Shown: positions 6,290 through 46,909 of the stretch, in pieces | Numbering within the stretch: position 1 is the first letter of the stretch | How the letters are laid out: the number at the start of each line of letters is the position of its first letter | Assembly: GCF_001677475.2 (NCBI RefSeq) | Contig: NZ_CP015229.1 | Strand: one strand, 5' to 3' | From: Escherichia coli | Lineage (GTDB): Bacteria > Pseudomonadota > Gammaproteobacteria > Enterobacterales > Enterobacteriaceae | DNA length: 64,000 nucleotides | Translations under genes and position numbers: made by a program | The notes under the pieces: generated by a model | Database searches by the model: none | What the model saw: the letters and a program-made list of their open reading frames with translations, nothing else | Told to the model about the DNA's origin: nothing

Positions 6290-7756
6290 TTATTTTTTCT
6301 CGACGACGGGACTTGCCTGATACCCGCCGCCCAGCGATTTCATCAACTGAATGCTTTGGATCACCCGGCGGCTGTCCAGCATCAGTAATGACATCTCCTC
6401 GGCAAGCACTGGCAACCGGGCTTCGGTGGCCTGTAAGCGGCTGGTTAAGCCGCGTTGATAGGCGGCCTCGGCAGCGCGCTGGGTGAAGCGCGTTGCTTCC
6501 ACGCGTTCAGCCTGCATCTCTCGCTCGTCGTTGAGCGTTTGCAGACGCGTGCCGTTGACGGCAACGTCGCGCACCGCATTCAGCACTGACTGGTTGTAAC
6601 GTTCAATCATCATGTTGCTGGCGGCGCGAGTGCCTTCGAGATTGGCATTCAACCGTCCACCGTCAAACAGCGGCAATTTCAGACCTGGGATAAAGTTGAA
6701 CTGGCGACTGGTTTTTTTGAATAAGGTATCCAGGTGGATAGAATCCAGGCCGAAAAACGCTTTGATATCAAAGCTCGGATAGAACAGCGCCCGCGCGGAA
6801 TCCACCTGATCTAATGACGCCTGAACATACCAGCGCATAGCTTGCAGATCCGGGCGTCTGGCGAGCAACTCATAAGAGAGTGTCGCCGGAATACCGGTCT
6901 GGACTTGCGGTAATGCCACCGGTTTGATCTCCGGCATATCGCTGGCTCCCGCGCCAATCAATGCACGCAGAGATTCTCGCGTTTCGGTGATTTGCCCTTT
7001 AACGGCAGCAATTTGTTTATCGACCGCCAGAATCTGTGCCCGCGCGCCGTGGAAAGGCACTTGCGCTTCCAGACCGTGCGCCACTTTACTCTGGTGCGCT
7101 TTCACCGCGTAATCAATCACATCGCGTGTTTGTTCTAACAGATCGAGCATCTGATAGCTGGCCTGCATACTGTAATAAAGCTGCGCTACGCCCGTGGTCA
7201 GCGATAGTTCTACTGCTGCGGTTTCTGCCAGCGCTGCATTATGCGCGCCAATGGCGGCGGCAACCGCTGAGCGATGCACACCCCACAAATCAAGATCCAG
7301 TCCGGCAAACAAACCGACTGTGGCTTCCGTATAGTACGGCCCGTCCATCCCCAGTGCGGGCGCATCCATCGCATAAGGGCTTAAAAAGCCGTTCGCCGAG
7401 ACACGTTGGCGGTTGAGCATCCCTAACGCTGCGACCTGTAATTGTGAACCGGCATCTAACAAATCGGCCTGCGACTGCGCTTTTTCTTCCCGCAGTTTCG
7501 CTTCGGCGAGGGTGTGTGAACCACTTAGCGTCCGTTGGATCAGTGCATCCAACTGCGGGTCATTGAGTTGTTTCCACCACTGCGCCTGCGGCCAGCCGGA
7601 GCTGGCAAGATGAATATCATCGGCCAGTTTGATTTGTTCCGGTTTGAGCTGTTGATGAGGCGCAGAATCCTTACGTACCAGGGCACAGCCGGAAATCAGC
7701 GTCGTGCTGCCGAGAATGCTGCACAACAGCAGGCGTGAAAGTTGACGATTGATCAT
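6290..7756 (-). CDS. mdtP: Outer-membrane efflux channel (TolC-like lipoprotein) MdtP
   Basis: 488-aa ORF with lipoprotein signal (LISGC), OMF-family features; overlaps mdtO by 4 bp. Confidence 0.88.
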   Translation of the reverse strand: MINRQLSRLLLCSILGSTTLISGCALVRKDSAPHQQLKPEQIKLADDIHLASSGWPQAQWWKQLNDPQLDALIQRTLSGSHTLAEAKLREEKAQSQADLLDAGSQLQVAALGMLNRQRVSANGFLSPYAMDAPALGMDGPYYTEATVGLFAGLDLDLWGVHRSAVAAAIGAHNAALAETAAVELSLTTGVAQLYYSMQASYQMLDLLEQTRDVIDYAVKAHQSKVAHGLEAQVPFHGARAQILAVDKQIAAVKGQITETRESLRALIGAGASDMPEIKPVALPQVQTGIPATLSYELLARRPDLQAMRWYVQASLDQVDSARALFYPSFDIKAFFGLDSIHLDTLFKKTSRQFNFIPGLKLPLFDGGRLNANLEGTRAASNMMIERYNQSVLNAVRDVAVNGTRLQTLNDEREMQAERVEATRFTQRAAEAAYQRGLTSRLQATEARLPVLAEEMSLLMLDSRRVIQSIQLMKSLGGGYQASPVVEKK

Positions 7757-9804
7757 TGCGTGGCTCCTTGTACCTGTTCCGTGGCGGGCGTTAATACCGG
7801 GGCTGTCCAGTCTGGCAAGCGGGCGAAAAGCTGGCAGACGTGTTGCTCCTGTTTTAATAAGGTCGGCAGGATGGCCTGCGAGGCGGGTGTTTCTTCAAGC
7901 GTTATTTGAGGAGAACGGCTGAGTGCGGTTGCCAGACCGGCGGCGTATTTCTCCAGTGCGTCGGCAAACTGACCTGCTCTGTCCGGCTGGAGCGCGTTAT
8001 CCAGCGCCTGCGCCGAGTTCCAGGTTGCATCCCAGGCGTGAAGAATATCGCGGCCCTGACGAATAACCGTTTGCGAACGTTCAATCAGTAAAGCGCGTTC
8101 TTCGCTGTCCAGTTGACGCTCCAGCGCCACGCGTTGGCACATCTCTTCACAGGCATTAAACGCCGCATGCAGACCTATACGAATTTGCAGATAAGTGCGC
8201 AGAGCCGTGACTTCCTGTTGGCGCGGGATACGCATCAGTTTGCTTAACATACCCAGCGCGCCAGCCAGTTTTTGCGGCAGTGCACGCGCTTCGCTTTCAG
8301 GCCAGACAAAGGTGTAAATCACCGCCGATACTGCCGTACCGATAAGAATGCCGATGGCACGATCGCGTATTTCCACCAGGTCGTAAAACGGACCAAAGAC
8401 GTTTTCGAGCGTGGCGAGAGCAAAGGTCACCACCATCTGCGTGCCGATATAAGAAGAACGCTCAGAGCTGGTGGCGAACCACGCACCTGCCAGGAAAATC
8501 GGTGCCAGTACGAGCAGCAATTCGACAATGTTGTCCAGCCATGGCATGACCAGTAGCGTAAACAGCAACGCCAGAATTGCACCACAAAAAGCTCCGCCAA
8601 AACGTAGCGCCATCTTCTGGTACGAAGAACCGATATTAGGGTTAGCGACGATCACGCAGGTCAGCATACAGGTGTGAATGCCTTCCCAGTCCACGCCGCT
8701 GTAGAAGGTGTAACAGATCAAACAGGCCAGCAGCGTTTTTACTGCGTAACGCATATAGTCCGGATTAGTAAAGGCATCGGCGACCATTGACGGCGGTTTG
8801 GCGGCGGGCGTTGGCGGTGTGTGCGGATCCATCTGACCAAGCTGTAACAGTGTCTGGCAGATATTCTCCAGGTTACATTCCCGTGCCGCCATCGCTTCAT
8901 CTTCACTAAGCCGCCAGTCGCTTTGCCAGCACTGCCCTTTGGCAATAGCATGTTGCAGCTTGGTGATTTCAATGGCTAATTTTTGCCGAAACTCAATGAT
9001 TACCTGCGAATCAGCAAAAGAGGTGGGATCGTAGCGATTCAGCGTCGAGTAAATGTAGGTTACCGTTGCCACGCAGCTTTGCCACCATGCGCTCTGGGCT
9101 CGCCAGTTGGCATCATCCGCGAGGCAAAAGACATTGAGTTTTTGCAGCGCCAGCGTCTCTCTTTCAATCCGCGTTTCGGGTAGCGGTGCGAGGCTGTCCG
9201 TCAGGTGGCTAATGGCATCATCAAGCCGATCATTAATCGCCTGATGCATCTGCGTAATGGCACGACTGGGAAACCACAGCACGCCGATTAACGTCATCAG
9301 CAAGGTTGGATAGAGGCCAACAACGATACACCACAGGGTTAAGCGCACGACCACTTCCGGATAGTCGAGCATGGCGGGGAAGGTTTGCCCGTAAATAGCG
9401 ACAATGGCGACGGCGAAAAAGACCAGCCCCAACCGATGGGTGCGCATCAAAAACATACAGCCCATCAGGATAGGACCTGCGATGATCAATCGGATCAACG
9501 GTTCGCCATATGACCATTTGTAGATCAAAAACAGGCTGGCGATCTCCAGCACCGTGGCGACCACAAACAAGATCGCCACAAATTTGGTGTAAAACGCGTT
9601 CGACTGAATACCGTAAAACAGCACTGCCAGTGATAACGCCACAAAAGGGATCTCAAAAGTCATCGAGATCAGAATCACCAGTAGGCAGCCTACCCAGAGT
9701 TGCACGGTCTGCGGCACACGACCTGGCCGCCGCTCGCTTAACTCTTCATGAAAGAACGCCAGCAGCCTGACCACCGGTAATGGCAGGGAGTTGAGCGCGC
9801 TCAT
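7753..9804 (-). CDS. mdtO: Efflux pump inner-membrane component MdtO (aromatic acid exporter family)
   Basis: 683-aa polytopic membrane ORF; operon context mdtN-mdtO-mdtP. Confidence 0.85.
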   Translation of the reverse strand: MSALNSLPLPVVRLLAFFHEELSERRPGRVPQTVQLWVGCLLVILISMTFEIPFVALSLAVLFYGIQSNAFYTKFVAILFVVATVLEIASLFLIYKWSYGEPLIRLIIAGPILMGCMFLMRTHRLGLVFFAVAIVAIYGQTFPAMLDYPEVVVRLTLWCIVVGLYPTLLMTLIGVLWFPSRAITQMHQAINDRLDDAISHLTDSLAPLPETRIERETLALQKLNVFCLADDANWRAQSAWWQSCVATVTYIYSTLNRYDPTSFADSQVIIEFRQKLAIEITKLQHAIAKGQCWQSDWRLSEDEAMAARECNLENICQTLLQLGQMDPHTPPTPAAKPPSMVADAFTNPDYMRYAVKTLLACLICYTFYSGVDWEGIHTCMLTCVIVANPNIGSSYQKMALRFGGAFCGAILALLFTLLVMPWLDNIVELLLVLAPIFLAGAWFATSSERSSYIGTQMVVTFALATLENVFGPFYDLVEIRDRAIGILIGTAVSAVIYTFVWPESEARALPQKLAGALGMLSKLMRIPRQQEVTALRTYLQIRIGLHAAFNACEEMCQRVALERQLDSEERALLIERSQTVIRQGRDILHAWDATWNSAQALDNALQPDRAGQFADALEKYAAGLATALSRSPQITLEETPASQAILPTLLKQEQHVCQLFARLPDWTAPVLTPATEQVQGATQ

Positions 9805-10835
9805 TATTGCGGCTCAAGATTAGCGACTGCCGACGCGCCAATACGGAACATTTCCGGGTCAGGTTTATCGACCATGATTTTGACCGGAAAACGCTGGGCA
9901 ACGCGGACCCAGTTAATAGAACGAGAAACTTTCGGCAGGCCGCCCAGCACCAGGCCGCCGTCATCCGGTAGCACGCCGTAGCCAATCGAATCCACTTTAC
10001 CTTCGAAGGTTTTGCCGCTGTCGCTCATCAGGCGAATCGTTGCGGGTGTACCTGAGCGAATATTTTTCAGATCGGTTTCGCGGAAGTTGGCGATCACGTA
10101 CCAGTGACGAGTGTCGATTAGGGTAAAAATAGGGCGCATGGCAGAAGCAAATTGCCCGACGGAGGTTTTGAGAGAAATGACCCGGCCATCAAACGGCGCG
10201 CGAACGGTCGCCATTTCCAGATGCAGTTTGGTCAGGGCAATATCCGCTTCGACCGCCGCACGTTGCGCCACCAGCGCATCGACGCCGCTGACGGCGCTGG
10301 CGGCTGACTGCGCCTGTAACAATACGGCATTAAGATCCGCTTCTGCGGCGCGCTGCGCCGTTCTTGCACGGTCAACGTCTTCCGCTGAGACAAAACCTTC
10401 TTTCAATAATGGCTCGGTGCGGCGTAATGTATCTGTGGCCTGTTTCGCGGCGGCACGGGCTTTTTCTACCGTGGCATTAACCGAGTCGGCACCAAACTGT
10501 TGCGCGTCAACGCTACGCTGGGTGAGCATAATTTGCTTATCCAGCGCCGCGAGGGAGGCTTCGGCTTTCGCCAGATTGGCTTCGTACGGGCGCGGGTCGA
10601 TGCGGAACAGTAAATCGCCCTGTTTCACTGCCTGGTTGTCGGTGACCGCCAGTTCTACAATGCGACCGCTGACTTCCGGCACCACATCAATGGTATCTGC
10701 TGACGCGTAAGCGTCATTAGTTGATGGCGCACTGTCTACGCGCCAGATAACGAAAACAAGGGCAACCAGCGCCAACGCAACCACTAACAGAGCAGGGAAT
10801 TTACTGCGAGGAGCTTTTTTCGGCGTACTTTCCAT
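9804..10835 (-). CDS. mdtN: Membrane fusion protein (HlyD family) MdtN
   Basis: 343-aa ORF, single N-terminal TM segment followed by coiled-coil and beta-barrel MFP regions. Confidence 0.88.
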   Translation of the reverse strand: MESTPKKAPRSKFPALLVVALALVALVFVIWRVDSAPSTNDAYASADTIDVVPEVSGRIVELAVTDNQAVKQGDLLFRIDPRPYEANLAKAEASLAALDKQIMLTQRSVDAQQFGADSVNATVEKARAAAKQATDTLRRTEPLLKEGFVSAEDVDRARTAQRAAEADLNAVLLQAQSAASAVSGVDALVAQRAAVEADIALTKLHLEMATVRAPFDGRVISLKTSVGQFASAMRPIFTLIDTRHWYVIANFRETDLKNIRSGTPATIRLMSDSGKTFEGKVDSIGYGVLPDDGGLVLGGLPKVSRSINWVRVAQRFPVKIMVDKPDPEMFRIGASAVANLEPQ

Positions 10836-10853
10836 GAGCGCGTCTCAAATAGA

Positions 10854-11129
10854 TTAGAAAAATGCCAGCCAGAGCAGCATGGCGTAGAGAGCAAAAAGGG
10901 CGGTATAAATAATTCCGACAAATGCCAGATTGATATTTGCCCGCTGAATAATTCGCCTCGCGATGAGCGTCAAAATAAGGCTGGCAATAGCGCAGAAAAA
11001 CCAGCTGGGATAATAAGCGCCGATCACCGGGATTGCCGGAGATAATGAGCATCCCGAAACCATGAAGACGGGAATTATCCAGGCTGTTTTTTTGAGTTGC
11101 ATCGCCATGCGAGAGAGAACTGTTGGCAT
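10854..11129 (-). CDS. ytcA: Small lipoprotein/membrane protein YtcA (91 aa)
   Basis: ATG at 11129-11127 gives MPTVLSRMAMQLKKTAWIIPVFMVSGCSLSP... with lipobox; first gene of the ytcA-mdtNOP cluster. Confidence 0.75.
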   Translation of the reverse strand: MPTVLSRMAMQLKKTAWIIPVFMVSGCSLSPAIPVIGAYYPSWFFCAIASLILTLIARRIIQRANINLAFVGIIYTALFALYAMLLWLAFF

Positions 11130-11300
11130 ATTAAATACATCCTGTCTGCTGCGAACAATATCTGTAGTGAATATCAATATCCATTGAAGGCGTCAGTATG
11201 GCTATTTTCTTGATGAATAAAAATAGCTTTATTCAGCCACCGCATTCATAACTTATATATTTTATGTATTAATTGCCTGTATGTATTTTTATAATAAATA

Positions 11301-11328
11301 CTTTTGGGGGCTTAAGCGCCCCCAAAAG
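11301..11328 (-). terminator. Rho-independent terminator downstream of yjcS
   Basis: cttttgggggc-ttaa-gcgcccccaaaag hairpin followed on the minus strand by a T/A-rich tract. Confidence 0.65.
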
Positions 11329-11337
11329 TGAGTGGCA

Positions 11338-13323
11338 TTAATTTGGGGTTACGATATTCACCCACAAATCGAAATTATCCAGACAGGCAATAATTTCTTC
11401 CAGTTTCGCGCCATTGCCAATAATTTTGGCTTTCTTCGCTTTTACCAGATCCGCCATTTTGGCTTGTCCGGTCAGCACGGCGTGCAGATCTTCACGGCTA
11501 ATGTAGAAGGACGCATTGGCTTGCGGTTGCAGCGTTTTACGGTAGTTAAGCACGCTATCGTTCAGGGTCAGGTTGAGGTTATCGCCGTTACTCATATTGA
11601 AGTTCAGGCTGATGTTCTTCCCGGCGGCTTTTTCGCTATCGAGGCGAACAGCCATAAAGTCGAACAGCATTTCGACCGACATCCCGCGAATGGTATCCGG
11701 GGAACCGGTGGTGCCGTGGCTGAACTTATGTACCCCTTCGCGCAGCTCTTTCGCGCCAGTCAGGTAGAAACCGCGCCAGGTGGCTGACTCCGCCTGATAA
11801 CCAAGCTGTTCAAAGTTATTGGCTTGCAGATTCTTCGCCACCTGGTCGCCCGGATTGGCGGCAATCACCTGTTTCAGTAACTCTGCCGACCAGCGATAAT
11901 CTCCCTGCTTGTTTGCTTCTTGCGCCAGGCTGATGACGCGTGCGGAACCGCCCAACGCCTGTACATAACGTTTACCCATCTCCACCTGACCATACGGATG
12001 CAGGTTTGCCGGGTTACCGTCGTAATAGCCGAGGTAGAAGTTATATACCGCACGGGCGTTGTGGCTGACAGAACCGTAATAGCCACGGCTGGCCCAGTTA
12101 TTGGCAAGCGCAGGCGGCAGCTTAATCATGTCGCCGATTTCATTCATGGTGTAGCCCTGGTTTGCCAGGTGCAGGGTCTGGTCGTGAATGTACTTGATAG
12201 TATCGCGATATTTACCAATATAATCATTGATATGCTTATTGCCCCATACCGGCCAGGTGTGCGGCATAAACAGGACTTCCGCTTCGTTACCCCACATATC
12301 CAGCGTTTCGTTCAGGTACTCGGTCCACTTGTTGGTATCGCGGGTTTTCGCGCCGCGCAGAGTGTAGAAGTTGTGCAGGGTATGCGTGGCGTTCTCGGCG
12401 GTACACAGGGCTTTCAGGGCCGGAATATAGAAGTGCATTTCCGCTGGCGCTTCGCTGCCTGGGGTCATCAGGAAGTCAAACTCCAGGCCGTCGATAATCA
12501 TCTTCTCGCCAGTTCTGACGATCGTTTTGGTTGGCGCAATAATGCTTGGGTCACCGGTTGCCAGCGTCACGCCAAGGCCATTACCCACGTTACCCTGCGC
12601 GTTGTGCGGCAGTAACAGGCCGTAAGAGTAGAGCGCACGGCGGCTCATAATGTTACCCGCCAGTACGTTTTCACTGATGGCTTCGTCCATAAATCCAGCA
12701 GGGGCAATCACCTGCACTTTGCCCGATTTAACATCGGCTTCAGAGATAATACCTTTCACGCCACCATAGTGGTCAGTGTGGCTGTGGGTGTAGATAACCG
12801 CAACAATCGGTTTTTGCGGACGATGCTGGAAGTAAAGGTCAAGGGCGGCTTTTGCGGCAGGCGGCGTTACCAGCGGGTCGATAACAATAATGCCTTTCTC
12901 GCCTTCCACGAACGTAATGTTGGAGATGTCCTGACCACGCACCTGATACATTTTATCGGTGACTTTGAACAGGCCAGAAATACCGTTGATCTGTGACTGA
13001 CGCCACAGGCTGGGGTTTACGGTTTCCGGCGCAGCGGCATTAATATCAAATTTGTAATCGTCTGCGCGGTAGTAAACTTTACCGTTCGCATCACGCAGAA
13101 TACCTTCGTTCAGCAGCGGAGCGATAAATCCACGCTGGGCATCGTCAAAATCCTGACGATCGCTAAACGGTAATGATTTGGCGTAATTCTGATTAACCTG
13201 TTGCGTATATTGGGAGGCGGCTTTCGCTTCCTCTTTCGCGTAAGCGGTATTTACCATCATGCCGCTGGCGGCGGTTAACGCAATAACAATCCTGCTCAAA
13301 CGGAATAACCGAGAGTTATTCAT
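11338..13323 (-). CDS. yjcS: Alkyl/aryl-sulfatase YjcS (metallo-beta-lactamase fold with SCP2-like C-terminal domain)
   Basis: 661-aa reading from the ATG at 13323 (GGAG Shine-Dalgarno 8 nt upstream); signal peptide; HSHTDHYGG metallo-beta-lactamase motif. Confidence 0.88.
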
Positions 13324-13575
13324 ATAAATCTCCATTTATCATTTGTGTCGTAAATATGTAATCCATGCAAAATACGTCATTTAAAGCTGGCGATATCATA
13401 ATTGGGAAATTGCGACTTTAATAAGTAGAAGTGTGAGCTGAACGCGCCATTTTATTAGGCATTTGTGCTGAAGAGGGAAAAGTACGCAAATTTATTATCT
13501 CTGTAAATAATATGAGGTGTTTTATATATTTATTATATATATTGTACTTCGGCAAATACTGAGCACAATTAATCA

Positions 13576-13893
13576 ATGCAACCGGTGTTTTTTATTAAAA
13601 AACGTACCGGAGCAATGGGCGGTCATGTCGCTGGCACCGCAGGATTCTGTGTTGCTGTGCCAGCCTTTTATTCATGGTCAATGAGTGAGGGGATTGATAA
13701 AGAAACCAGGTCGTCAGAGCGCACTGATTATCCGCATTACGCCAGTGAAGTTGCACTGGCTTTTGGTTCACGAGTGGTTGGCCTCGAACTGGCAAAAATG
13801 ATTGTGGATGCGTGGCTGGGCGCGCAGTACGAAGGCGGTCGTCATCAACAACGCGTGGAGGCGATTACGGCAATAGAGCAGCGGAGAAATTGA
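13576..13893 (+). pseudogene. rpiB: Decayed remnant of ribose-5-phosphate isomerase B / allose-6-phosphate isomerase (rpiB)
   Basis: C-terminal ...SSERTDYPHYASEVALA-FGSRVVGLELAKMIVDAWLGAQYEGGRHQQRVEAITAIEQRRN matches RpiB, but the central catalytic segment (ICGTGVG region, about 50 residues) is missing and the N-terminus is unrelated. Confidence 0.6.
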
Positions 13894-13961
13894 GATTCAT
13901 CCACTACTTGCATGGATGAGTAATGACTAATGTGGATAGAGTTTCTTTTTGAGGTTGGCTA

Positions 13962-14291
13962 ATGAAACGCTTTCCGCTATTTCTTTTATTCACCCTGCTC
14001 ACGCTGTCCACCGTTCCGGCCCAGGCCGATATTATCGACGACACCATTGGCAATATTCAGCAGGCGATTAACGACGCTTATAACCCTGACCGTGGGCGAG
14101 ACTATGAAGATTCGCACGACGACGGCTGGCAGCGTGAAGTGAGCGACGATCGGCGCAGACAATATGACGACCGCCGCCGCCAGTTTGAAGATCGCCGCAG
14201 GCAGCTGGACGATCGCCAGCGCCAGCTTGATCAGGAGCGTCGGCAACTGGAGGATGAAGAGCGGAGAATGGAAGATGAGTATGGGCGATGA
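13962..14291 (+). CDS. yjdP: Secreted low-complexity protein YjdP
   Basis: 109-aa ORF, signal peptide MKRFPLFLLFTLLTLSTVPAQA, then repeated DDRRRQ-type charged repeats. Confidence 0.8.
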   Translation: MKRFPLFLLFTLLTLSTVPAQADIIDDTIGNIQQAINDAYNPDRGRDYEDSHDDGWQREVSDDRRRQYDDRRRQFEDRRRQLDDRQRQLDQERRQLEDEERRMEDEYGR

Positions 14292-14332
14292 GGTAGGCTC
14301 GGGTGAGGGGGCCAGCGAGCACATTCTCCCCA

Positions 14333-15091
14333 TCACGCCACCCCAATCTCCATCCCATCAAACCCCGCCTCAAACCCCGACGGCAGTGCGTTTTCCATCA
14401 GCCACGCATCAAACTGGTGGCTGATATGGGTCAGAATCACCCGTGGCGAGCGGATAACCTGATTCAGCGCAAGCACGGTATTTAAATCACAGTGATTACG
14501 CGGTGCATCCTCGCGCGGCGGGTGGCTGCAATCAATCACCATTACCTGCGGCTGATTATTGCGTAAAAATTTCAGCGTTTTTTCCGGCAAGCCAGCGGTG
14601 TCAGACAGCCACGCCACCCGGCTGTGTGCCGTTTCCAGCAGATAACCGAAGGTCAGTTTTGAGTGGTTGAGCGGCAGCGGCGTGACCTGTAATCCCTGCA
14701 AATCAAACATCACAAATGGCTCCACCGTGTGGCTGAAATCAAGCAGGCCCGGATGTTTAAACAGATCGTCGCAGCCCTGTTCATCCGGCGGGCCGTAGAT
14801 CGGGATCGAATCGCCCACGCCCCAGCGCAGCGGAAACAGCCCCTGCACGTGATCCATATGGTAGTGCGTCAGCAAAAACTGCTGGAACGATCCGGGCGAC
14901 CAGCGATCGGCGAGATCGTGCAGCCCGGCGTCGATCAGGGTGATCGCGTCGTTAAACTTCACGACGCCGCTGCATGGCTGGCGGCGATACTGCGGTGAGC
15001 GCCGCGCTCTGGCGCAGGCCGCGCACTCACAGCCCCATGCGGGAACGCCCTGTGCGCCGCCAGTGCCAGTAAGTGTGAGGGTCAGGCTCAT
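14333..15091 (-). CDS. phnP: Phosphoribosyl 1,2-cyclic phosphate phosphodiesterase PhnP (metallo-beta-lactamase fold)
   Basis: 252-aa ORF with HYHMDH motif; last gene of the phn operon. Confidence 0.9.
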
Positions 15092-15092
15092 G

Positions 15093-15527
15093 TTACAGCG
15101 CCTTGGTGAAGCGGAAGTGGCTCTGCTCGTAGCCTTCGCGCAGATAGAAACGGTGCGCGTCGTGGCGCTTGACGTTGGTGGAAAGCTCGGTCATTTCGGC
15201 CCCGGCCTGGCGGGCTTCTTCTTCTGCCCATGCCAGTAATTTACTGCCGACATTCAGACCGCGCGCCTGCGGCATCACCACCAGTTCCTGAATTTCGCCG
15301 ATCCAGTTGACATGATGCAGATGAAACTGCAAATGCAGGCCGATCATGCCGACAACTTCGCCATCCAGCAGCGCCAGATGGTAGCGCATGTTCGGGTCGC
15401 GCAGGTTGGCGTTAAAGCCCACGCGAAACGCGTGGTGGTCAAACTCCGCCTGTTTTAGCTCACAAATCAGCGCGTAAACTGCGTCGGTATCGTACTGCGT
15501 GGCCGGGCGAAGCTCACAAGCAGGCAT
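15093..15527 (-). CDS. phnO: Aminoalkylphosphonate N-acetyltransferase PhnO (GNAT)
   Basis: 144-aa GNAT-family ORF in phn operon order. Confidence 0.88.
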
Positions 15528-16071
15528 GGTGTTTCTCCTTCTGATGAATCAGCGTCAGCAGCGTGTCGACCGACTGGCGCAGGCTGCCGTCATTATTGAG
15601 CGTATGGCAATCCTGAGGAGTATAGCGGGCGGCGCGCGCCAGCCGGGCGTTAATTTCACTGGCGTTTTCACGGCCACGGTTTTCCAGGCGCTGGCGCAGG
15701 ATCTCCGGCGAAACCTGTAAGCAAATGGGCAGCAGCGCCGATTGATAGCGCGCCCGCGCCTGCGGCAAATGTGCGCGTGAGCCGTTGACCACCACGTCAA
15801 ATCCAGCGTGCAGCCAGAGGTCAATCTCGACGCCGATGCCATAATACAGGCCGTTGGCGTGCCAGCTTAAGGCCAGAAGGTTCTGCCCCGCGCGGGTAAA
15901 AAACTCCTGCTCGCTCAGGGCGATATGGTTTTCACTTCCGGCGCTGGCGGCGCGCGTGATGTAGCGATGCGCTACCAGTAGCTGAGTTTGTTCCCGCTGG
16001 CGAAGTTCCGTCAACAGACTGTCTTTTCCGGAGCCAGAGGCCCCCATTAACCAAATCAGTTTTCCCGTCAT
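15514..16071 (-). CDS. phnN: Ribose 1,5-bisphosphate phosphokinase PhnN
   Basis: 185-aa ORF with P-loop GASGSGKDS; overlaps phnO by 14 bp. Confidence 0.9.
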
Positions 16072-17207
16072 CAGAACACCCTTTTCCCCTGACGCCAGAC
16101 GTGGTCGATGTGAATGTGATTGCCCTTGCGATGCGCCAGCACCAGGTCGGCGCGTTTACCCTCGCCAATCACCCCGCGATCCTGAAGATTCAGCGCCTGG
16201 GCCGGGTTTTTGGTCACCAGCTTCACCGCCTGCGGCAGCGTAAAGCGGTTGCTCTGGTCATCGGCGACGCGGAACGCCGCATCCAGCAGGCTGGCGGGGT
16301 AGTAGTCGGAAGAGAGGATATCCAGCAGGCCAAGCTGTGCCAGCTCACTTGCCGCCACGTTACCGGAGTGCGAACCGCCGCGCACGATATTCGGCGCGCC
16401 CATCAGCACGTTCATACCATGCTTGCGTGAGGCTTCTGCGGCTTCGAACGTGGTAGGAAATTCGGCGATCACGCTACCAAGCTGGTGGGATTCGGCAACG
16501 TGGGCGTGCGTGGCGTCATCGTGGCTGGCGAGCGCAATGTGTCGCGCGCGGCACATTGCGGCGATGGTTTCGCGATTTGGCTGCGACCAGCGTGCGGCGA
16601 GCGCCAATTGCTCTTCTTCGTACTGCTGCATCTGCGCATCGGTGAGGGAATATTTGCCCTGATAATATTCGCGATACTTCTCGCGATTGGCGAACTGGCG
16701 CTGGCCTGGCGAGTGGTCCATCAGCGATACCAGCGTCACCGGTTCGCGCTGCACCAGTTTTTCAAACAGCGGCAGCGTGGTGTGATGCGGCAGTTCGCAG
16801 CGCAGGTGCAGGCGGTGCTCGGCGCGGTTGACGCCGCGTTTCTGCGTCTCTTCGATGGCGTTGATCATCTTCTCCAGATTCTCCAGCCGATCGCCGCCGT
16901 CGCGCACATCACCAATCGCCACGGCGTCCAGTACGGTGGTGATGCCGCTTGCCACCATCAGCGCGTCGTGGCTGCTCATCGCCGAATGGGCGGGCCAGTC
17001 GACTTTCGGGCGCGGGGTGAAGAATTTATCGAGGTTGTCGGTATGCAGCTCAATCAGGCCGGGTAGTAGCCAGCCACCTTCGCCGTCCATCGCTTCCGGC
17101 TGGCGGCTCTGGCTTTCGGCAAAGGCGCGAATTTCGCCATCCTGTACTTCCAGTGAACCGTGCACCACTTCGTTTTCCAGCACCAGTTTGACGTTATTGA
17201 TAATCAT
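16071..17207 (-). CDS. phnM: C-P lyase pathway triphosphate diphosphohydrolase PhnM (amidohydrolase fold)
   Basis: 378-aa ORF; operon position and metal-dependent hydrolase motifs. Confidence 0.9.
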
Positions 17208-17884
17208 GAAGAGGCTCCCATCGGGTGCAGGCGGTCGGCGACGTCATTGCGTACGGCTTCGTCATGGAAGATACCGACGATGGCTGCGCCACGGGCTTTA
17301 GCTTCGAGAATCAGTTCCACCACCGCGGCGCTGTTTTTGGCGTCCAGCGAGGCGGTAGGTTCGTCGAGCAGCAGAATGGGGTAGTCGACGATAAAGCCAC
17401 GGGCGATGTTGACGCGCTGCTGTTCGCCGCCGGAGAAGGTCGATGGTGCAAGGTGCCACAGGCGTTCAGGCACGTTCAGGCGCGTCAGTAATCGGGCGGC
17501 TTTAGCGGCGCAGGCTTCACGCGGTACGCCGGTATCGAGCAGAGGCTGCATCACCACTTCCAGTGCCGAAATACGCGGGATGACGCGCAGAAACTGGCTC
17601 ACCCAGCCGATGGTGGTTTTGCGGATCTCCACCACTTTGCGCGCTGGCGCGGTGACCAGGTCTACCCATTCCTCACCGTGTTTGATCTGGATTTGCCCTT
17701 CGTCGGGCAGATAGTTGGCGTACAGCGAGCGCAGCAGGGTTGATTTTCCGCTGCCGGAGTGGCCGTGAAGCACCACGCATTCGCCTGCGTTGACGGTGAG
17801 CGAGGCACGTTGTAAGACGTGCAGGCGCACGCCGTTTTGCTGGTGCAGGATGAAGGTTTTACTGACGTTTTGTACGTTAATCAT
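17204..17884 (-). CDS. phnL: C-P lyase system ATP-binding protein PhnL
   Basis: ATG at 17884-17882 gives [11 protein letters not shown]...; Walker [10 protein letters not shown]; ORF-track start at 17998 is an extension through the upstream REP. Confidence 0.9.
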
Positions 17885-17905
17885 TTTTCGCCTCGTGGTT
17901 CGGGT

Positions 17906-17990
17906 GTCGGATGTGACGCTGACGCGTCTTATCCGACCTACGGGGAGCGCATTTGTCGGCCGGATAAGGCGTTTACGCCGTATCCGGTAC
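17906..17990. repeat. BIME: two inverted REP units between phnK and phnL
   Basis: gtcggatgtgacgctgacgcgtcttatccgacctac and gtcggccggataaggcgtttacgccgtatccggtac, an inverted REP pair inside the operon. Confidence 0.8.
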
Positions 17991-17994
17991 TGGC

Positions 17995-18753
17995 TCAATT
18001 CTGCAAAACCGATGACACCAGCAACTGGGTGTACGGGTGGTGCGGGTCGTCGAGCACGCGGTCGGTTAACCCACTCTCCACCACTTGCCCCTGTTTCATC
18101 ACCAGCAAACGGTCCGCCAGCAGGCGGGCGACGCCCAGATCGTGGGTGACAATCACCACCGCCAGATTCAGCTCCACCACCAGACCGCGCAGCAGATCGA
18201 GCAGGCGCGCCTGTACCGATACATCCAGCCCGCCGGTCGGTTCATCCATAAACACCAGCTTCGGATGCGTCACCAGGTTACGGGCAATCTGCAAACGTTG
18301 CTGCATGCCGCCGGAAAAGGTGGTCGGCAGGTCGTCGATCCGGTTGGCGGGAATCTCCACCTCTTCCAGCCACTTCTGCGCGGTGGCGCGGATGTCGCCG
18401 TAATGACGCGCCCCGGTTGCCATCAAGCGTTCGCCGATGTTGCCGCCCGCCGATACCTGACGGCGCAGGCCGTCGAGCGGATGCTGATGCACCACGCCCC
18501 ATTCGGTGCGCAGCAGGCGACGGCGGTCGGCCTCGCTCATGCCATAGAGGGAACGGTTTTCATAGTGAATCTCCCCCTGCTGCGGCGTCAGGCGCGCGGA
18601 GATTGATTTCAGCAGCGTGGTCTTCCCGGAGCCGGATTCCCCGACAATGCCTAGCACTTCCCCCGGCCATAAATCAAAAGAGACATCGCTAAAGCCTTTG
18701 CCCGGCGCGTAAAGGTGGGTCAGGTTATTGATCGAAAGTAACGGTTGATTCAT
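17995..18753 (-). CDS. phnK: C-P lyase system ATP-binding protein PhnK
   Basis: ATG at 18753 gives [15 protein letters not shown]...; Walker [10 protein letters not shown]. Confidence 0.9.
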
Positions 18754-19595
18754 TGGTTTTTTGCCTCGCTCTGTTGGCGGCAATAATCGGTATCGGAGCA
18801 GACAAACATGCGGTTTCCGGCGTCATCCAGCACCACTTCATCAAGATAGCTGTGGGTCGATCCGCAGATGGCGCACGGCTCATCCCACTGCTGGACGGTG
18901 AACGGGTGATCGTCGAAATCGAGGCTTTCCACGCGGGTAAACGGCGGCACCGCATAGATGCGCTTCTCACGCCCTGCGCCGAACAGTTGCAGGGCGGGCA
19001 TCATGTCCATTTTCGGGTTATCGAATTTCGGGATCGGCGACGGGTCCATCACGTAGCGCCCGTTCACCTTCACCGGATAGGCGTAGGTGGTGGCGATATG
19101 ACCGAAGCGGGCGATATCTTCATACAGCTTCACCTGCATCACGCCATACTCCTCCAGCGCGTGCATGGTGCGGGTCTCCGTTTCTCGCGGCTCGATAAAG
19201 CGCAGCGGTTCCGGGATCGGCACCTGGAAGATAACTATCTGATCTTCGGTCAGCGGCGTTTCGGGGATACGGTGGCGCGTCTGGATAAGCGTCGCATCAT
19301 CCGTGCGTTCGGTGGTGTTCACCCCGGTCACGCGCTTAAAGAAGTTGCGAATCGACACGGCGTTGGTGGTGTCATCCGCGCCCTGGTCAATCACCTTCAA
19401 CACGTCGCTTTCGCCAATCACGCTGGCGGTGAGCTGTATGCCGCCGGTTCCCCAGCCGTACGGCATCGGCATCTCGCGCCCGCCAAACGGCACCTGATAA
19501 CCGGGGATCGCTACCGCTTTTAAGATGGCGCGGCGGATCATGCGTTTGGTCTGCTCGTCGAGGTACGCAAAGTTGTAGCCGCTCAGATTAGCCAT
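18750..19595 (-). CDS. phnJ: C-P lyase catalytic subunit PhnJ (alpha-D-ribose 1-methylphosphonate 5-phosphate C-P lyase)
   Basis: ATG at 19595 gives MANLSGYNFAYLDEQTKRMIRRAILKAVAIPGYQVPFGG...; C-terminal CxxCxxxxxC cluster. Confidence 0.92.
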   Translation of the reverse strand: MANLSGYNFAYLDEQTKRMIRRAILKAVAIPGYQVPFGGREMPMPYGWGTGGIQLTASVIGESDVLKVIDQGADDTTNAVSIRNFFKRVTGVNTTERTDDATLIQTRHRIPETPLTEDQIVIFQVPIPEPLRFIEPRETETRTMHALEEYGVMQVKLYEDIARFGHIATTYAYPVKVNGRYVMDPSPIPKFDNPKMDMMPALQLFGAGREKRIYAVPPFTRVESLDFDDHPFTVQQWDEPCAICGSTHSYLDEVVLDDAGNRMFVCSDTDYCRQQSEAKNQ

Positions 19596-25245: not shown

Positions 25246-25298
25246 GAAGAGTTAACGAGATTTCGATGACAGTGCGGGAGGGCGGCCCTCCCGGCGGG

Positions 25299-25742
25299 TT
25301 AGTGCGTTGGTTGTTGTTTGACGACATTAATCATCCACGGTACGCCAAATTTATCGGTGACTTTGCCGAAGCCATGCGCCCAGAAAGTTTCCTGCCAGGC
25401 CATTTCGATTTTTCCGTTAGCGGCAAGGTTGTCAAACCAGCGTTTTCCTTCTTCGACCTGTTGCGAATCGAGCACCAGCGTAAAGCCGGAGTAGCTGGCT
25501 TTTCCTGACGGTATAGCATCGCTCATCATGATATCGCTTCCGGCAATGCGCACATTGGCGTGGGCGATGGCGGTATCGGGAAATTGCATTCCGGAAGGGC
25601 AGTTCTCGGCGCTGTCCTGCGCTGATTTTGGCATTTCGCCGAAGCTGATTTTATAGAGCAGTTCAGCGCCCAACGTACGTTGATAATAAGCAATTGCGTC
25701 GGCACAGTTACCGGCAAAAGAGAGGTAGGGACTTAACGGCAT
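25299..25742 (-). CDS. yjdN: Glyoxalase/bleomycin-resistance-fold protein YjdN (PhnB)
   Basis: 147-aa ORF MPLSPYLSFAGNCADAIAYYQ... Confidence 0.85.
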   Translation of the reverse strand: MPLSPYLSFAGNCADAIAYYQRTLGAELLYKISFGEMPKSAQDSAENCPSGMQFPDTAIAHANVRIAGSDIMMSDAIPSGKASYSGFTLVLDSQQVEEGKRWFDNLAANGKIEMAWQETFWAHGFGKVTDKFGVPWMINVVKQQPTH

Positions 25743-35198: not shown

Positions 35199-36536
35199 TT
35201 AATCTTTGCTTATTGGTGCATCTAAGGGATACGGGTTTTTATGCAGCCTGTTGTAATTCAGCGCATACATGGCGGTGATGACCATCAGGGTGACAAATGA
35301 CCACATAACCTCTTTCGCCCCGGACCCCACAACGGCCCAAATGCAGTAGAGGAAGGCAATGGTAGTAACAGCCAGATATGCCGGGCGTGCTTTACCAAAG
35401 TGACCGTGGCCGAGCAGCAGTAACGCCGCACAGGTGTAAAGATATGGCACCAGTGTAAAGATGACCGAGACGGAAGAAACCAGACCGAACTCTTTGGTCG
35501 CGTTTGGTGAAATGCTGCTGAGCTGGAAGATGGTCATCAAAATACCGACGATAATCAGCCCCGCCACTGGCGTACCCGCTTTATTTACACGGGCAAAAAT
35601 CGGTGGGAACAGTCCGTCATCGGCAGCGGCTTTCGCCGTTTGACCCGCCAGCAATGTCCAGCCGCCCAGTGAACCTAAGCAACCCGCAGCTGCGCAGAAG
35701 GAAACAATGGCCCCGGCGGTGTCACCCAACGCCATCCGTGCGGCATCACCGAATGGCGAGGCAGAAACGCGCAGTGCGGCATTAGGGATCATCCCCATAA
35801 TCGCGGTGGTGGAGAGTACATAGCAAACGGCGGCAATCAATACCCCACCAATGGTGGCGATAGGGACATTGCGTTTCGGGTTTTTCACCACACCTGCGGC
35901 AACGGAGGCACTTTCCACACCGATGAACGACCACAGCGTAACGTTAAGGGTACTTTGAATTGCACCGAAGGTGCCCAGGCCGCTGACGTTCCATGCCGCC
36001 ATATAGGTTTCACCACGGAACCAGAACCAGCCAAATACGGCAATCCCGACGATGGGGATCAGCGCCAGCACGGTGGCAACGGCCTGCACGCGGGTGATCA
36101 TTTTCGGACCGACAATGTTCAGCAGGACGAAGATCCACAGCACCACGACGCAGGTGATGGTTAATACCAGTGGATCTTTCAGAATCGGGAAGAAGTAACT
36201 TAAATATCCTACGCCAATGACCACCATGGCGATATTGCCGATCCAGCAGGCCAGCCAGTAGAGGACGTTGGTTTGATAACCGAGAAACGGGCCAAAGCAG
36301 CGGCGGGCGTAAGCGTAAGAACCACCAGGACTTGGGTCGAGGAACGACATTTTGGCGTATACCATCGAGAGCCCCAGCGCACCGATAATCGTCACCAACC
36401 ATCCATAAATGGCAATCCCGCCAGTGGAGGCCAGGTTTGCAGGTAACAGAAAAACACCTGACCCCATAATATTCCCCGACACCATCAGGGTGACGGGGAT
36501 TAAGCCCACTTTGTGAGCATCAGCATCCGAAGACAT
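35199..36536 (-). CDS. adiC: Arginine:agmatine antiporter (APC family)
   Basis: 445-aa 12-[34 protein letters not shown]... Confidence 0.93.
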
Positions 36537-36672
36537 AATTAAACTCCTGCGAAGGCGAGCTTCGTGACAATAAATTACGTCATATCATACGCCTGCATTC
36601 GATAGTTGAATTATTATCGACCGGGTTATCGCTGATGCCGTTATTAATATAGCTCTTCGTTAAGGTTAAAAA

Positions 36673-37434
36673 TCAGGCGACAGTGCGTTCTCTGTGCTGA
36701 CTAACATAATGCAGCGGCGTCATACCGTAGAAGTCTTTAAAGACAGAAATAAAGTACGACGTACTGTTGTAGCCGCAGGACTGTGATACCTGAGAGATAT
36801 TTTTACCGTCCATCATTAATTCATTTACGGCATAACGCATGCGGCAGGTGGTGATTATTTGGCTATAACTGGTGTTTTCGCTTTTCAGCTTTTTCTTTAA
36901 CAGACTCGGGCTAAGACATAAACAACTGGCTACCATACTAAGATTCCAGTCTTTGTGGATATCGCTTTCAATAATTTGATAAACGCTGTCACTTACACAA
37001 TTACGTAACATATACATCATTAATGAAAGGAATTTTTTACTGTCGAGAAAACGGGATAGCACAGTGAATAATAATGCGCGTGTTCGTTCCTTTTCTGACT
37101 CAGTTTCAGCGGGCATCATGCTGTGTTGCGCGGCAACGCGAAAGACGTCTGGCGTCAGGCATGGCAGGGTGAGGATGGGCGTAGCACTACGTTGCCATAC
37201 TGGTATTTGCGAGAGATCTTTATTCAGAAACCGGAGGTAATCTTTGATGATGTCGTGACTAATATGAGCAACCAAAGTGTTATTAAGAGAGGAGACGTCG
37301 ATAATATTATTTTCACAATTTAATAACGCCATATGGTTAGCTTTAAGGCTAATAGGTTCTTTCCCATTCACCCTTATCCAGACATCTTTTTCAGTCAATA
37401 AAACAATACAAGGTTGGTCGCTGCAAATCCTCAT
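36673..37434 (-). CDS. adiY: AraC-family transcriptional activator AdiY
   Basis: 253-aa ORF with C-terminal AraC-type HTH. Confidence 0.88.
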   Translation of the reverse strand: MRICSDQPCIVLLTEKDVWIRVNGKEPISLKANHMALLNCENNIIDVSSLNNTLVAHISHDIIKDYLRFLNKDLSQIPVWQRSATPILTLPCLTPDVFRVAAQHSMMPAETESEKERTRALLFTVLSRFLDSKKFLSLMMYMLRNCVSDSVYQIIESDIHKDWNLSMVASCLCLSPSLLKKKLKSENTSYSQIITTCRMRYAVNELMMDGKNISQVSQSCGYNSTSYFISVFKDFYGMTPLHYVSQHRERTVA

Positions 37435-37758
37435 ACATGTACTCCTGAGTGCGAATAAAAGACCAGTTCTCGCTAAAGCAAAGCGATACCGGGAAATGGT
37501 TATATAATTGTATGATGAATATAAACATGCATAAAAATAACGAGTTTTACTAATATTACAAATTTTTATAGTAATTTCTCATGTACATATTTTTTTACAG
37601 GGTAAATAACAGGCAAAAAAAAGCGCGGGGTGGGGCCGCGCAAAAAGTATGACATTTTTGTTTGCAGCAATTTTTATGAAAACGTTGCCATACTCAAAAG
37701 GCCTAAGGCCAGGCGGCGTAATGTTATTTAAACAATTACGCCTTCAGCGGAATAGTGG

Positions 37759-40026
37759 TTACGCTTTCACACACATAACGTGGTAAATACCGTCAATAAT
37801 TTCAGTCCCTTCAGTTTCGTGTTCAAATCCAGGGAAATGATGATCCCAGGATTGCAGCGAGCGTAAATAACTTACTTGCGGACTGTTTTTATCGCCGAAG
37901 TTTTCACCAGACAGCAGCATCGGGATTCCTGGCGGATACGGGATAACTGAGTTTGCCGCAATGCGTCCTGGCAGATTTTCAATGGATACCAGTTCGACAT
38001 TGTTGTCGACAATTGCGTTGTACGCTTCTCGCGGGGTGATTTCCGCCACCGGCAGGCCGGAATAGGCTTCGTTCAACCGTGCGCCAGGGTTGTTTTCTTT
38101 CAGCCAGGCAAACATGGTGTCACCCAGATCGTGAATCCCCATGTTCGCGTAAGTGTCAGGATATTGTTCAACAAGTTCCGGCATCACCTGCGCCAGCGGT
38201 GTGTTGGCGTCATAGTGGCGTTTGAAGGAGCAAAGGGTGTTAACCAGAGTCCCCCATTTCCCACGGGTTACGCCCATAGAGAACAGGAACATAATTTGGA
38301 AGTCAGTGGTGCGGGTAGGCACAATGCCGTGGCGACCAAGCCAGGCAGTGACCAGCGCCGCCGGAACACCGGTTTCTTCCAGTTCACCATCTTCACCCAT
38401 TCCCGGAGCAAGGATGCTGACTTTAATTGGGTCGAGCATACTCCAGTTATCCGGAATATCTTTGAAGCCGTGCCAGCTTTCGCCCGGATGCATTACCCAG
38501 CAGTCCTGAACGGTGGTCAGCAGTTTGGTTGGTGCGTCAGCAAAGTCATAGGTTTTGCCGGTTTGTGGGTCGGTGACGACTTCTTTGTTCCACGGTTTGA
38601 AGAACCAGCTACCGTCAGCGGTGAACTCTTTATACAGCCGCGCCATCGCCTGACGGAAATCAACCGCTTCGTCGATCACTTCCTGCGTCAGTGACAGGCC
38701 GCTGTTGCCGTCCATCATCGACACCGCCACGTCGTTGGATGCGCAGATGGCATACAGCGGGGAGGTGGTGGCATGCATCATGTAGGCCTGGTTGAAGCGG
38801 GAGAAGTTAATCGCCCCACGACCTTCACGTACATGAATATAAGAAGCCTGTGAAAGCGCATTCAGCAGTTTGTGGGTGGAATGGGTGGCGAAAACAGTAG
38901 GACCGTTGTGATCGCCAGGTTCGCCGCGCATGGCATAGTGATCGGCATAGATCGGGTTGAAACGTGCATAGCCGTACCAGGCTTCGTCAAAGTGCAGACG
39001 ATCGGAGGTTTTTTCCAGCAGATCCTGCGCTTCTTTAGCGTTATAACACACGCCGTCATAGGTGCAGTTGGTCACCACGCAGTAAGACGGTTTTTGCCCG
39101 GCTTTGTCTTTGGTCAGCGGGCTTTCACTGATTTTCTTCTGCAAGGTTTCAGGTTGCATTTCTTGCGGATAGATTGGCCCGATAATGCCGTAGCGGTTGC
39201 GGCTTGGCACCATGTAGACCGGTTTCGCGCCTGTCAGCATCAAGCCTTGTTCGATGGATTTATGGCAGTTACGGTCAACGACCACGACATCGTTATCGGT
39301 CATGCAAGCCTGCATGATGGTGCGGTTAGAGCCGGAAGTACCGACGACTACCGACCAGGAGCGATCGGCACCAAATACGCGTGCGGCATATTTTTCGCTT
39401 TCGCCAAATGCGCCAGTATGGTCAAGCAAAGAACCGAGGGAAGTTCGTTCGATGCCCATGTCGGTGCGGAACAGGTTTTCACCATAGTAGTCATGGTAGA
39501 AACGTCCGGCGGGTGTTTTGGTAAAACCAACGCCACCCTGGTGGCCTGGCGCTGCCCAGGAATATTCATGGATGTCGCTATATTTCATCAGCGCGCTGAA
39601 CAGTGGCGGCAACAGTTGCTGGCGGTAGCGGGTCATCGCGGCAACGGCGCGTCCGGCGATAAAGTCGGCGGTATCTTCCAGAATCCAGGCGAATTCATCG
39701 ACAAGCTCCAGCAGATCCCGGTCCATTGCGGCGAGGGCTTTTTCCCGATCGCCCAACAGGAAGACCGGCACGTTTTGTTGGCGCTCATGAAGCTTACCGA
39801 TCAATTGTCTGACGTTTTGATGTTCGTCCGGATGTTCCATTTGATAGCTGAACATCAGGCAGTCAATGGCTTCGTTTGAAGAGAGAATGGCAAAACCATC
39901 ATCAAAGGAGGTGGATTTAATCACGGTAACATTTTGCTGGCTTAAAGCATCTGCCAGACGCTCAACGGCGTTACCGACCCAGGTGTCTTGATGGAGAAAC
40001 TCGCTTTCAACAATTAATACTTTCAT
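37759..40026 (-). CDS. adiA: Biodegradative (acid-inducible) arginine decarboxylase
   Basis: 755 aa from the ATG at 40026 (MKVLIVESEFLHQDTW...); PLP-lysine motif FATHSTHKLL. Confidence 0.93.
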   Translation of the reverse strand: MKVLIVESEFLHQDTWVGNAVERLADALSQQNVTVIKSTSFDDGFAILSSNEAIDCLMFSYQMEHPDEHQNVRQLIGKLHERQQNVPVFLLGDREKALAAMDRDLLELVDEFAWILEDTADFIAGRAVAAMTRYRQQLLPPLFSALMKYSDIHEYSWAAPGHQGGVGFTKTPAGRFYHDYYGENLFRTDMGIERTSLGSLLDHTGAFGESEKYAARVFGADRSWSVVVGTSGSNRTIMQACMTDNDVVVVDRNCHKSIEQGLMLTGAKPVYMVPSRNRYGIIGPIYPQEMQPETLQKKISESPLTKDKAGQKPSYCVVTNCTYDGVCYNAKEAQDLLEKTSDRLHFDEAWYGYARFNPIYADHYAMRGEPGDHNGPTVFATHSTHKLLNALSQASYIHVREGRGAINFSRFNQAYMMHATTSPLYAICASNDVAVSMMDGNSGLSLTQEVIDEAVDFRQAMARLYKEFTADGSWFFKPWNKEVVTDPQTGKTYDFADAPTKLLTTVQDCWVMHPGESWHGFKDIPDNWSMLDPIKVSILAPGMGEDGELEETGVPAALVTAWLGRHGIVPTRTTDFQIMFLFSMGVTRGKWGTLVNTLCSFKRHYDANTPLAQVMPELVEQYPDTYANMGIHDLGDTMFAWLKENNPGARLNEAYSGLPVAEITPREAYNAIVDNNVELVSIENLPGRIAANSVIPYPPGIPMLLSGENFGDKNSPQVSYLRSLQSWDHHFPGFEHETEGTEIIDGIYHVMCVKA

Positions 40027-40224
40027 CATTGCTTACCCGGTTATGAAGGAATCTTCGTTGCGGGCAAGTATCTTCCGGCCTTTTCGGGCTGTAAAGCGCG
40101 TGAAAAATAAACATTTTTGAAATATTTGTTTTTATAAACAATATGTTATGTGATTATTTTAAATTATTTTCACTGCTTATTATCGACGGCTAAACTATTT
40201 TTTTGGCTGATACTGATATCGTCT

Positions 40225-41133
40225 TTAGCCGGGAAACGTCTGGCGGCGCTGTTGGCTAAGTTTGCGGTATTGTTGCGGTGACATGCCGACATATTTGCCG
40301 AACGTGCTGTAAAAACGGCTACTCGAACGAAAGCCTGCCGTCAGGGCAATATCGAGAATACTTTTATCGGTATCGCTCAGTAACGCGCGAACGTGGTTGA
40401 TGCGCATCGCGGTTATGTACTGTTTCATCGTCAATTGCATGACCCGCTGGAATATCCCCATTGCATAGTTGGCGTTAAGTTTGACGTGCTCAGCCACATC
40501 GTTGATGGTCAGCGCCTGATCATAGTTTTCGGCAATAAAGCCCAGCATCTGGCTAACATAAAATTGCGCATGGCGCGAGACGCTGTTTTTATGTGTGCGC
40601 GAGGTTTTATTGACCAGAATCGGTTCCCAGCCAGAGAGGCTAAATCGCTTGAGCATCAGGCCAATTTCATCAATGGCGAGCTGGCGAATTTGCTCGTTCG
40701 GACTGTTCAATTCCTGCTGCCAGCGGCGCACTTCAAACGGACTAAGTTGCTGTGTCGCCAGTGATTTGATCACCATACCGTGAGTGACGTGGTTAATCAG
40801 GTCTTTATCCAGCGGCCAGGAGAGAAACAGATGCATCGGCAGATTAAAAATCGCCATGCTCTGACAGGTTCCGGTATCTGTTAGTTGGTGCGGTGTACAG
40901 GCCCAGAACAGCGTGATATGACCCTGATTGATATTCACTTTTTCATTGTTGATCAGATATTCCACATCGCCATCGAAAGGCACATTCACTTCGACCTGAC
41001 CATGCCAGTGGCTGGTGGGCATGATATGCGGTGCGCGAAACTCAATCTCCATCCGCTGGTATTCCGAATACAGCGACAGCGGGCTGCGGGTCTGTTTTTC
41101 GTCACTGCTGCACATAAACGTATCTGTATTCAT
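40225..41133 (-). CDS. melR: AraC-family melibiose operon activator MelR
   Basis: 302-aa ORF; divergent from melA. Confidence 0.9.
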   Translation of the reverse strand: MNTDTFMCSSDEKQTRSPLSLYSEYQRMEIEFRAPHIMPTSHWHGQVEVNVPFDGDVEYLINNEKVNINQGHITLFWACTPHQLTDTGTCQSMAIFNLPMHLFLSWPLDKDLINHVTHGMVIKSLATQQLSPFEVRRWQQELNSPNEQIRQLAIDEIGLMLKRFSLSGWEPILVNKTSRTHKNSVSRHAQFYVSQMLGFIAENYDQALTINDVAEHVKLNANYAMGIFQRVMQLTMKQYITAMRINHVRALLSDTDKSILDIALTAGFRSSSRFYSTFGKYVGMSPQQYRKLSQQRRQTFPG

Positions 41134-42771: not shown

Positions 42772-42873
42772 AACGCGACTAAACGCTACTGCGCCGGGGG
42801 ATTTATTCCGGCGCACACCTCTGACGATACCAATAACAGAAGGCGGGCGTTGGTAACAACGACCCGATACCCT

Positions 42874-46900: not shown

Positions 46901-46909
46901 AAAGTGCAT

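Follow-up and report, generated by a model that had tools for sequence, protein, structure and literature searches.

A probable deletion scar of the D-allose and rpiB locus between yjcS and yjdP in Escherichia coli

The 626 bp that separate yjcS from yjdP in the window, the 64-kb stretch of Escherichia coli DNA analysed here, are very probably an old deletion scar, inherited as one allele from an ancestor with the K-12-type arrangement yjcS-alsKECAB-alsR-rpiB-yjdP. In the proposed course of events, a loss of ~6.56 kb would have taken the als operon with its regulator alsR, the 5' end of rpiB and the promoter region between the divergent alsR and rpiB, and a 159-bp in-frame loss within rpiB (codons 54-106) would have occurred between copies of the sequence CTGGCT(G/T)TTG. 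The remainder reads through as a chimeric open reading frame (ORF) of 105 residues without the RpiB active site, and the scar would have spread by descent and recombination. We infer the order and mechanism of both deletions, as well as the non-expression of the ORF.

Locus layout and composition of the junction

The left flank of the scar is yjcS, an alkyl sulfatase gene (11338-13335, minus strand), and the right flank is yjdP, which encodes a DDRRRQL repeat protein (13962-14291, plus strand) and is followed by phnP, phnO, phnN and phnM on the minus strand. The gap between them is exactly 626 bp (13336-13961), which confirms the spacing given in the original prediction, or 638 bp by the RefSeq annotation, in which the yjcS start lies 12 nt further in. 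In the K-12 derivative C600 the gene order is yjcS-alsK-alsE-alsC-alsA-alsB-alsR-rpiB-yjdP, and 7,270 bp lie between the same yjcS and yjdP start codons. The K-12 gene order and the als/rpiB insert of ~7 kb given in the original prediction were thus right, and als genes do stand at this junction in C600, as the prediction presupposed. Tblastn searches of the 64-kb window with the seven K-12 proteins found no als genes, only generic ABC-ATPase likeness to phn genes and the rpiB remnant, and no member of the D-allose regulon (alsR, alsB, alsA, alsC, alsE or alsK) occurs within those 64 kb.

Four collinear pieces of the scar were defined by blastn and pairwise alignment against K-12. On the left, window positions 13201-13547 match the K-12 yjcS 5' end and the yjcS-alsK intergenic region at 93.4% identity by blastn. 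The part upstream of yjcS (13336-13547), which is homologous to the K-12 intergenic region, differs by 7-9% from als+ haplotypes and by 2-5% among scar alleles. It is followed by a scar-specific stretch of 78 bp (13548-13625), in which lie both the start codon (ATG) of the chimeric ORF and an A/T-rich hairpin. Every scar allele examined has this stretch, and the als+ loci inspected, those of K-12, ST131, E. whittamii and SCPM-O-B-8794, are without it; neither the 64-kb window nor any locus compared contains a second copy. The stability of the hairpin in this stretch (CCGGT..TTTTTT/AAAAAA..ACCGG) does not significantly exceed that of shuffled sequence (z = -1.37), and 13200-14100 returned no Rfam match. 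The presence of these extra 78 bp implies that the event was no simple clean deletion.

The 78 bp adjoin a remnant of the alsK 3' flank (13626-13677), which consists of 46 bp downstream of alsK, the stop codon and the last sense codon, and which is collinear with K-12 and ungapped, with 40/52 matches (77%). The junction of the ~6.56-kb deletion, which relative to K-12 reaches from the alsK stop codon through alsK to about rpiB codon 28, lies at 13678-13685; its exact base is not placeable because the surrounding sequence has decayed. Next come two pieces of rpiB in the plus orientation. The middle remnant (13686-13761) covers approximately codons 28-53 (nt 84-159), and the blastn match to K-12 in this part runs from 13686 to 13765 (rpiB nt 84-163) at 88.75% identity. 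The 3' remnant (13762-13893) covers codons 107-149 and the stop codon and is 99-100% identical to K-12. Between these pieces, 159 bp (codons 54-106 of K-12 rpiB) are gone in frame, and the junction (13756-13765, plus strand) coincides with direct repeats of the form CTGGCT(G/T)TTG (CTGGCTGTTG vs CTGGCTTTTG in K-12). A loss between direct repeats is what slippage or microhomology-mediated deletion typically leaves. The blastn match to K-12 that begins here (13756-14100) spans rpiB nt 313-450, the spacer and yjdP at 99.1% identity; the 68-bp rpiB-yjdP spacer (13894-13961) is kept in both the als+ and the scar states.

With the K-12 D-allose regulon alsRBACEK-rpiB (Kim et al. 1997 and Poulsen et al. 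1999, as cited in PMC2808357), the window therefore shares the site, the alsK 3' flank, rpiB codons ~28-53 and 107-149 and the rpiB-yjdP spacer. It has lost ~6.56 kb and 159 bp, and with them every als gene, alsR, the promoters and 81 RpiB codons out of 149, and it has 78 bp that are not found in K-12. The earlier suggestion that the junction is a deletion scar is well supported by this anatomy, in which the alsK 3' flank and two rpiB pieces remain collinear with K-12.

Two further structures were observed within the scar. A hairpin just downstream of alsK (13630-13641/13653-13664) is kept, with a compensatory pair relative to K-12 (K-12 GTTGGCAC...GTGCCAAC, window GCTGGCAC...GTGCCAGC); this hairpin (13630-13664) may be the als operon terminator, now located within the chimeric ORF. 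At 13741-13770, the deletion junction puts a T-run right after a pre-existing rpiB stem (GCCAGTGAAGTTGCACTGGC TTTTGGTT), and positions 13741-13755 and 13756-13765 together form a terminator-like hairpin followed by a T-run on the plus strand upstream of yjdP, possibly by coincidence.

The source strain comes from an E. coli lineage that is thinly covered by sequencing: none of 5,426 complete E. coli genomes exceeds 96.9% identity to window 9000-19000 (yjcS-phn, around the scar) or 99.1% to window 36000-48000 (adiA-melAB-fumB-dcuB), and no near relative stands among them. Allelic lineages of yjcS are unusually deep for an E. coli chromosomal gene: the window allele is ~94% identical to any other E. 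coli allele examined, and in the O104:H4 scar haplogroup the 5' half of yjcS differs by 10-11% from all others. A YjcS scan of GTDB species led to cryptic-clade Escherichia at 92-93% DNA identity. The phn genes to the right of the scar are just 93-98% identical. The scar allele closest to that of the window is in ECONIH4, whose mdtO has an internal stop and is labelled a pseudogene; its counterpart in the window, the ORF at 7753-9804, is open.

The chimeric reading frame and its relation to RpiB

The chimeric ORF (13576-13893, plus strand; 318 nt, 105 residues) is RefSeq protein WP_001183282.1, which is annotated as an 'RpiB/LacA/LacB family sugar-phosphate isomerase'. It starts inside the 78-bp stretch, reads the alsK 3' flank on the opposite strand and then continues in the rpiB frame; residues 1-37, which the first two of these parts and the short junction encode, are non-RpiB. 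A phmmer search against the PDB matched the ORF to E. coli RpiB (1NN4/2VVR; E = 3e-33) in two blocks only: residues 38-62 correspond to RpiB 29-53 (21/25 identical) and residues 63-105 to RpiB 107-149 (43/43 identical). RpiB residues 1-28 and 54-106 are absent, and the ORF passes directly from Ala53 to Phe107. It keeps 68 of the 149 RpiB residues and has lost 81, which means that over half of the fold is gone. The original prediction had described RpiB-like termini, an absent catalytic core and an unrelated N-terminus. The lost core, the kept C-terminus and the unrelated N-terminus hold; the likeness to RpiB at both termini does not, as the surviving parts are an internal piece and the C-terminus. 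The ORF N-terminus was also considered as a decayed RpiB N-terminus ('GGHVAG' resembling RpiB 'CDHVGF', with the shared DNA TCATGTCG); this was rejected because 13626-13677 aligns ungapped to the alsK flank (40/52) and is collinear with the left flank, whereas the likeness to rpiB amounts to one 8-mer.

The N-terminal strand with Asp9-His10, which we take to be the N-terminal active-site residues of E. coli RpiB, is gone from the ORF together with the rest of residues 1-28. The trypanosomatid equivalents of this pair are Asp10/His11 (PMC4783025). In E. coli numbering, Cys66 is the catalytic base of RpiB and the exchange H99N lowers kcat 26-fold (PMC4783025). Both Cys66 and His99 fall within the deleted block 54-106, which places the ORF outside functional RpiB. 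Measured against the curated NCBIfam cut-offs, the ORF scores 77 bits with TIGR01120 (cut-off 138.65; K-12 RpiB 255.7) and 61.7 bits with TIGR00689 (cut-off 88.3; K-12 RpiB 211.1), and its match to Pfam PF02502 is limited to the last 37 positions of the model (102-138 of 138). The expected loss of RpiB is thus supported by an ORF that is without residues 1-28 and 54-106 and falls below both NCBIfam cut-offs.

As to whether the ORF aligns over its full length with an intact family member, full-length matches to hundreds of database proteins exist, yet those listed are all E. coli copies of the scar ORF; the other listed matches are partial RpiB entries, with no intact family member among them. 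At least 1,000 contigs encode the exact 105-residue protein, its cluster holds 912 sequences, and the database names are 'RpiB/LacA/LacB family sugar-phosphate isomerase' or 'ribose 5-phosphate isomerase B'. With syntenic homology to part of rpiB and to the alsK flank, and with 81 of 149 codons lost, the ORF has the properties of a pseudogene or deletion remnant, and judged from its sequence it is best read as a pseudogene remnant without the RpiB active site and not as an enzyme.

Distribution, variation and origin of the scar

The same junction, counted where at least 80% of its length was present, occurs in 1,569 of the 5,426 complete E. coli genomes (~29%) at 96.8-99.2% identity. The als genes occur in 3,401 of these genomes and full-length rpiB in 3,402; partial rpiB occurs in 1,577 and corresponds to nt 313-450 in every record sampled. 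About 447 genomes, for example O157:H7, are without any rpiB DNA. These counts fit three mutually exclusive states (als+, scar and no rpiB), and no allele with just one of the two deletions was seen among the records sampled (30-40 of ~5,000).

The O157:H7 state (strain Z892) is an island at the same yjcS-yjdP site, in which a ~9.4-kb cassette takes the place of als-rpiB. The cassette encodes a response regulator, a carbohydrate (sugar) kinase, a ketose-1,6-bisphosphate aldolase, a D-lyxose/D-mannose isomerase, an ABC transporter and a hybrid sensor kinase. Like the scar, it has a 68-bp gap before yjdP, in which no match to the window spacer was found at the search thresholds used; unlike the scar, it is without rpiB-derived DNA. 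The presence of this island at the als site marks yjcS-yjdP as a replacement hot spot for sugar-utilisation cassettes. The intergenic haplotype that adjoins the O157:H7 cassette is shared, at 1% difference, by Escherichia sp. E1V33.

Nine RefSeq genomes with the scar, including O104:H4 2011C-3493 and EAEC 042, all have 626 bp without any indel and an intact ORF. Their alleles form two main haplogroups, 2.4-3.2% apart, with EAEC 042 as a further variant. Both deletions and the 78 bp are common to all nine, and the lack of indels among them speaks for a single, ancient origin. Against all functional rpiB alleles examined, the middle rpiB fragment shows 9-12% difference, compared to just 1.3-2.7% among functional alleles (K-12, ST131 and E. 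whittamii) in the same region, and the scar alone has three fixed substitutions. The distance of the 3' rpiB piece from K-12 is 0-0.8% for the window, ECONIH4 and O104:H4 and 2.3% for EAEC 042. The middle piece, with 8/70 sites different, stands apart from the conserved 3' piece (Fisher p = 0.001); it has three variants in common with the divergent SCPM-O-B-8794, and the 3' piece is K-12-like. A 3' piece that is 99-100% identical alongside a middle piece that is ~11% diverged is unlike the outcome of uniform neutral decay; to explain it, either the right flank must have recombined with als+ strains or some constraint must act on the 3' piece. The simplest reading of these alignments is that the right flank up to the 159-bp junction may undergo free homologous recombination with als+ E. 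coli, and that the 80-bp island between the junctions, with the DNA leftward of it, would stay tied to the scar haplotype. Selective constraint on the 3' rpiB piece is conceivable as well.

A rival reading, which we consider highly improbable, is that the ORF is a real expressed gene with a new N-terminus, the RpiB C-terminal helices and a non-catalytic role, as the RefSeq annotation implies. The ORF is indeed intact and indel-free in nine RefSeq genomes up to 3.2% apart, the NCBI pipeline calls it protein-coding and not a pseudogene, and the number of contigs that carry the exact protein points the same way. It is also less polymorphic (9/318 sites) than the upstream intergenic DNA (15/240), and its C-terminal 43 codons are fully conserved; however, the conservation of the 3' piece is matched by that of yjdP and intergenic DNA, which fits recombination with als+ strains. 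Polymorphism within the ORF, although in small numbers, is neutral-like, with 5 nonsynonymous to 4 synonymous differences among scar alleles and 4 to 2 in the non-RpiB and middle part. The native alsR/rpiB promoter region is deleted in the scar, no sigma-70-like promoter is predicted across 13250-14050, and no Shine-Dalgarno sequence is seen ahead of the ORF ATG. The N-terminal part is broken by frameshifts in independent NCBI assemblies, namely by a T added to the T6 run (13583-13588), which two independent samples show, and by deletion of an A at 13580, and the loss of over half of the RpiB fold also stands against a working gene product. Shorter ORF forms (70 and 92 residues) were considered as evidence of decay; the four Logan contigs of the 70-residue form look like sequencing errors because their homopolymer indels differ and phnP is broken, and were discounted. 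The decay argument from frameshifts uses the NCBI-assembly variants, one of which is also present in a Logan contig.

Two further possibilities are, taken together, very unlikely: either the chimeric ORF is translated and kept as a small protein built on the RpiB C-terminal helices, or balancing selection has kept the locus polymorphic for its three states (als+, scar and O157 island) since ancient times. If balancing selection were true, the left part of the scar (the yjcS upstream region, the 78 bp and middle rpiB) would descend from a divergent Escherichia lineage.

The direction of change can be read from relatives. In Salmonella enterica subsp. arizonae and two Kluyvera species, yjcS adjoins yjdP/phn with ~300 bp between and no als, and in Escherichia sp. 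MOD1-EC7003, a cryptic Escherichia, the junction is empty. The absence of als from distant relatives suggests that the als cluster was probably inserted at this site at a deeper time. The same genomes would accord with a short junction that is ancestral, with als-rpiB gained by K-12-like strains through insertion, but this is extremely improbable and is refuted for the window by rpiB pieces in the right order, orientation and frame, together with the alsK flank. It also conflicts with the spread of als+ loci at the same site, which occur in K-12 (phylogroup A), ST131 (B2), E. whittamii and the divergent SCPM-O-B-8794; this spread indicates that the als+ state predates the scar within Escherichia. 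Since the rpiB and alsK-flank remnants derive only from a complete locus, the state of the window is a secondary loss. In E. whittamii, SCPM-O-B-8794 and MOD1-EC7003 the whole phn operon is absent, and after yjdP (directly after yjcS in MOD1-EC7003) these three Escherichia resume at the equivalent of window ~25270-25310. That faulty assembly or sequencing produced the junction (for example, through a contig collapsed or joined wrongly) has a negligible chance; no supporting point was found, and the identical structure in 1,569 independently completed genomes and many drafts refutes it.

Phenotype, precedents and implications

The deletion scar has a phenotyped counterpart in EAEC 042, which has the same yjcS / 318-nt ORF / yjdP arrangement of 626 bp, 97.1% identical to the window without any indel; the differences amount to 18 substitutions, and the ORF products differ at four residues. 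In 2010, EAEC 042 was reported to be without the als operon and not to use D-allose in Biolog plates (PMC2808357). That paper describes a 'complete absence' of the locus, rpiB included, and its account makes no mention of an rpiB remnant (PMC2808357). The prediction that the source strain does not use D-allose is thereby supported, as the phenotype was shown experimentally in a strain with the same scar. E. coli W was reported as unable to catabolise allose, with als absent (PMC3032704), and PCN033 was reported without the als regulon (PMC4578781). The als-loss polymorphism is already known in the literature, and the feature is an ordinary one. For the source strain, we infer that als is absent beyond the 64-kb window too and that the cell has neither D-allose transport and catabolism nor RpiB; as a consequence of the proposed loss, ribose-5-phosphate isomerisation would depend on RpiA.

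The practical value of these findings is small. The strain is predicted to be D-allose-negative and RpiB-negative, which is relevant to metabolic models and to designs that use RpiB as a back-up for RpiA. The one point that deserves attention is a widespread and misleading annotation, in which the remnant (on at least 1,000 contigs) is entered as an intact enzyme; under the name of an RpiB-type isomerase, it could lead automated metabolic reconstructions to score strains wrongly as RpiB-positive. More broadly, the yjcS-yjdP junction illustrates a hot spot of alternating sugar cassettes.
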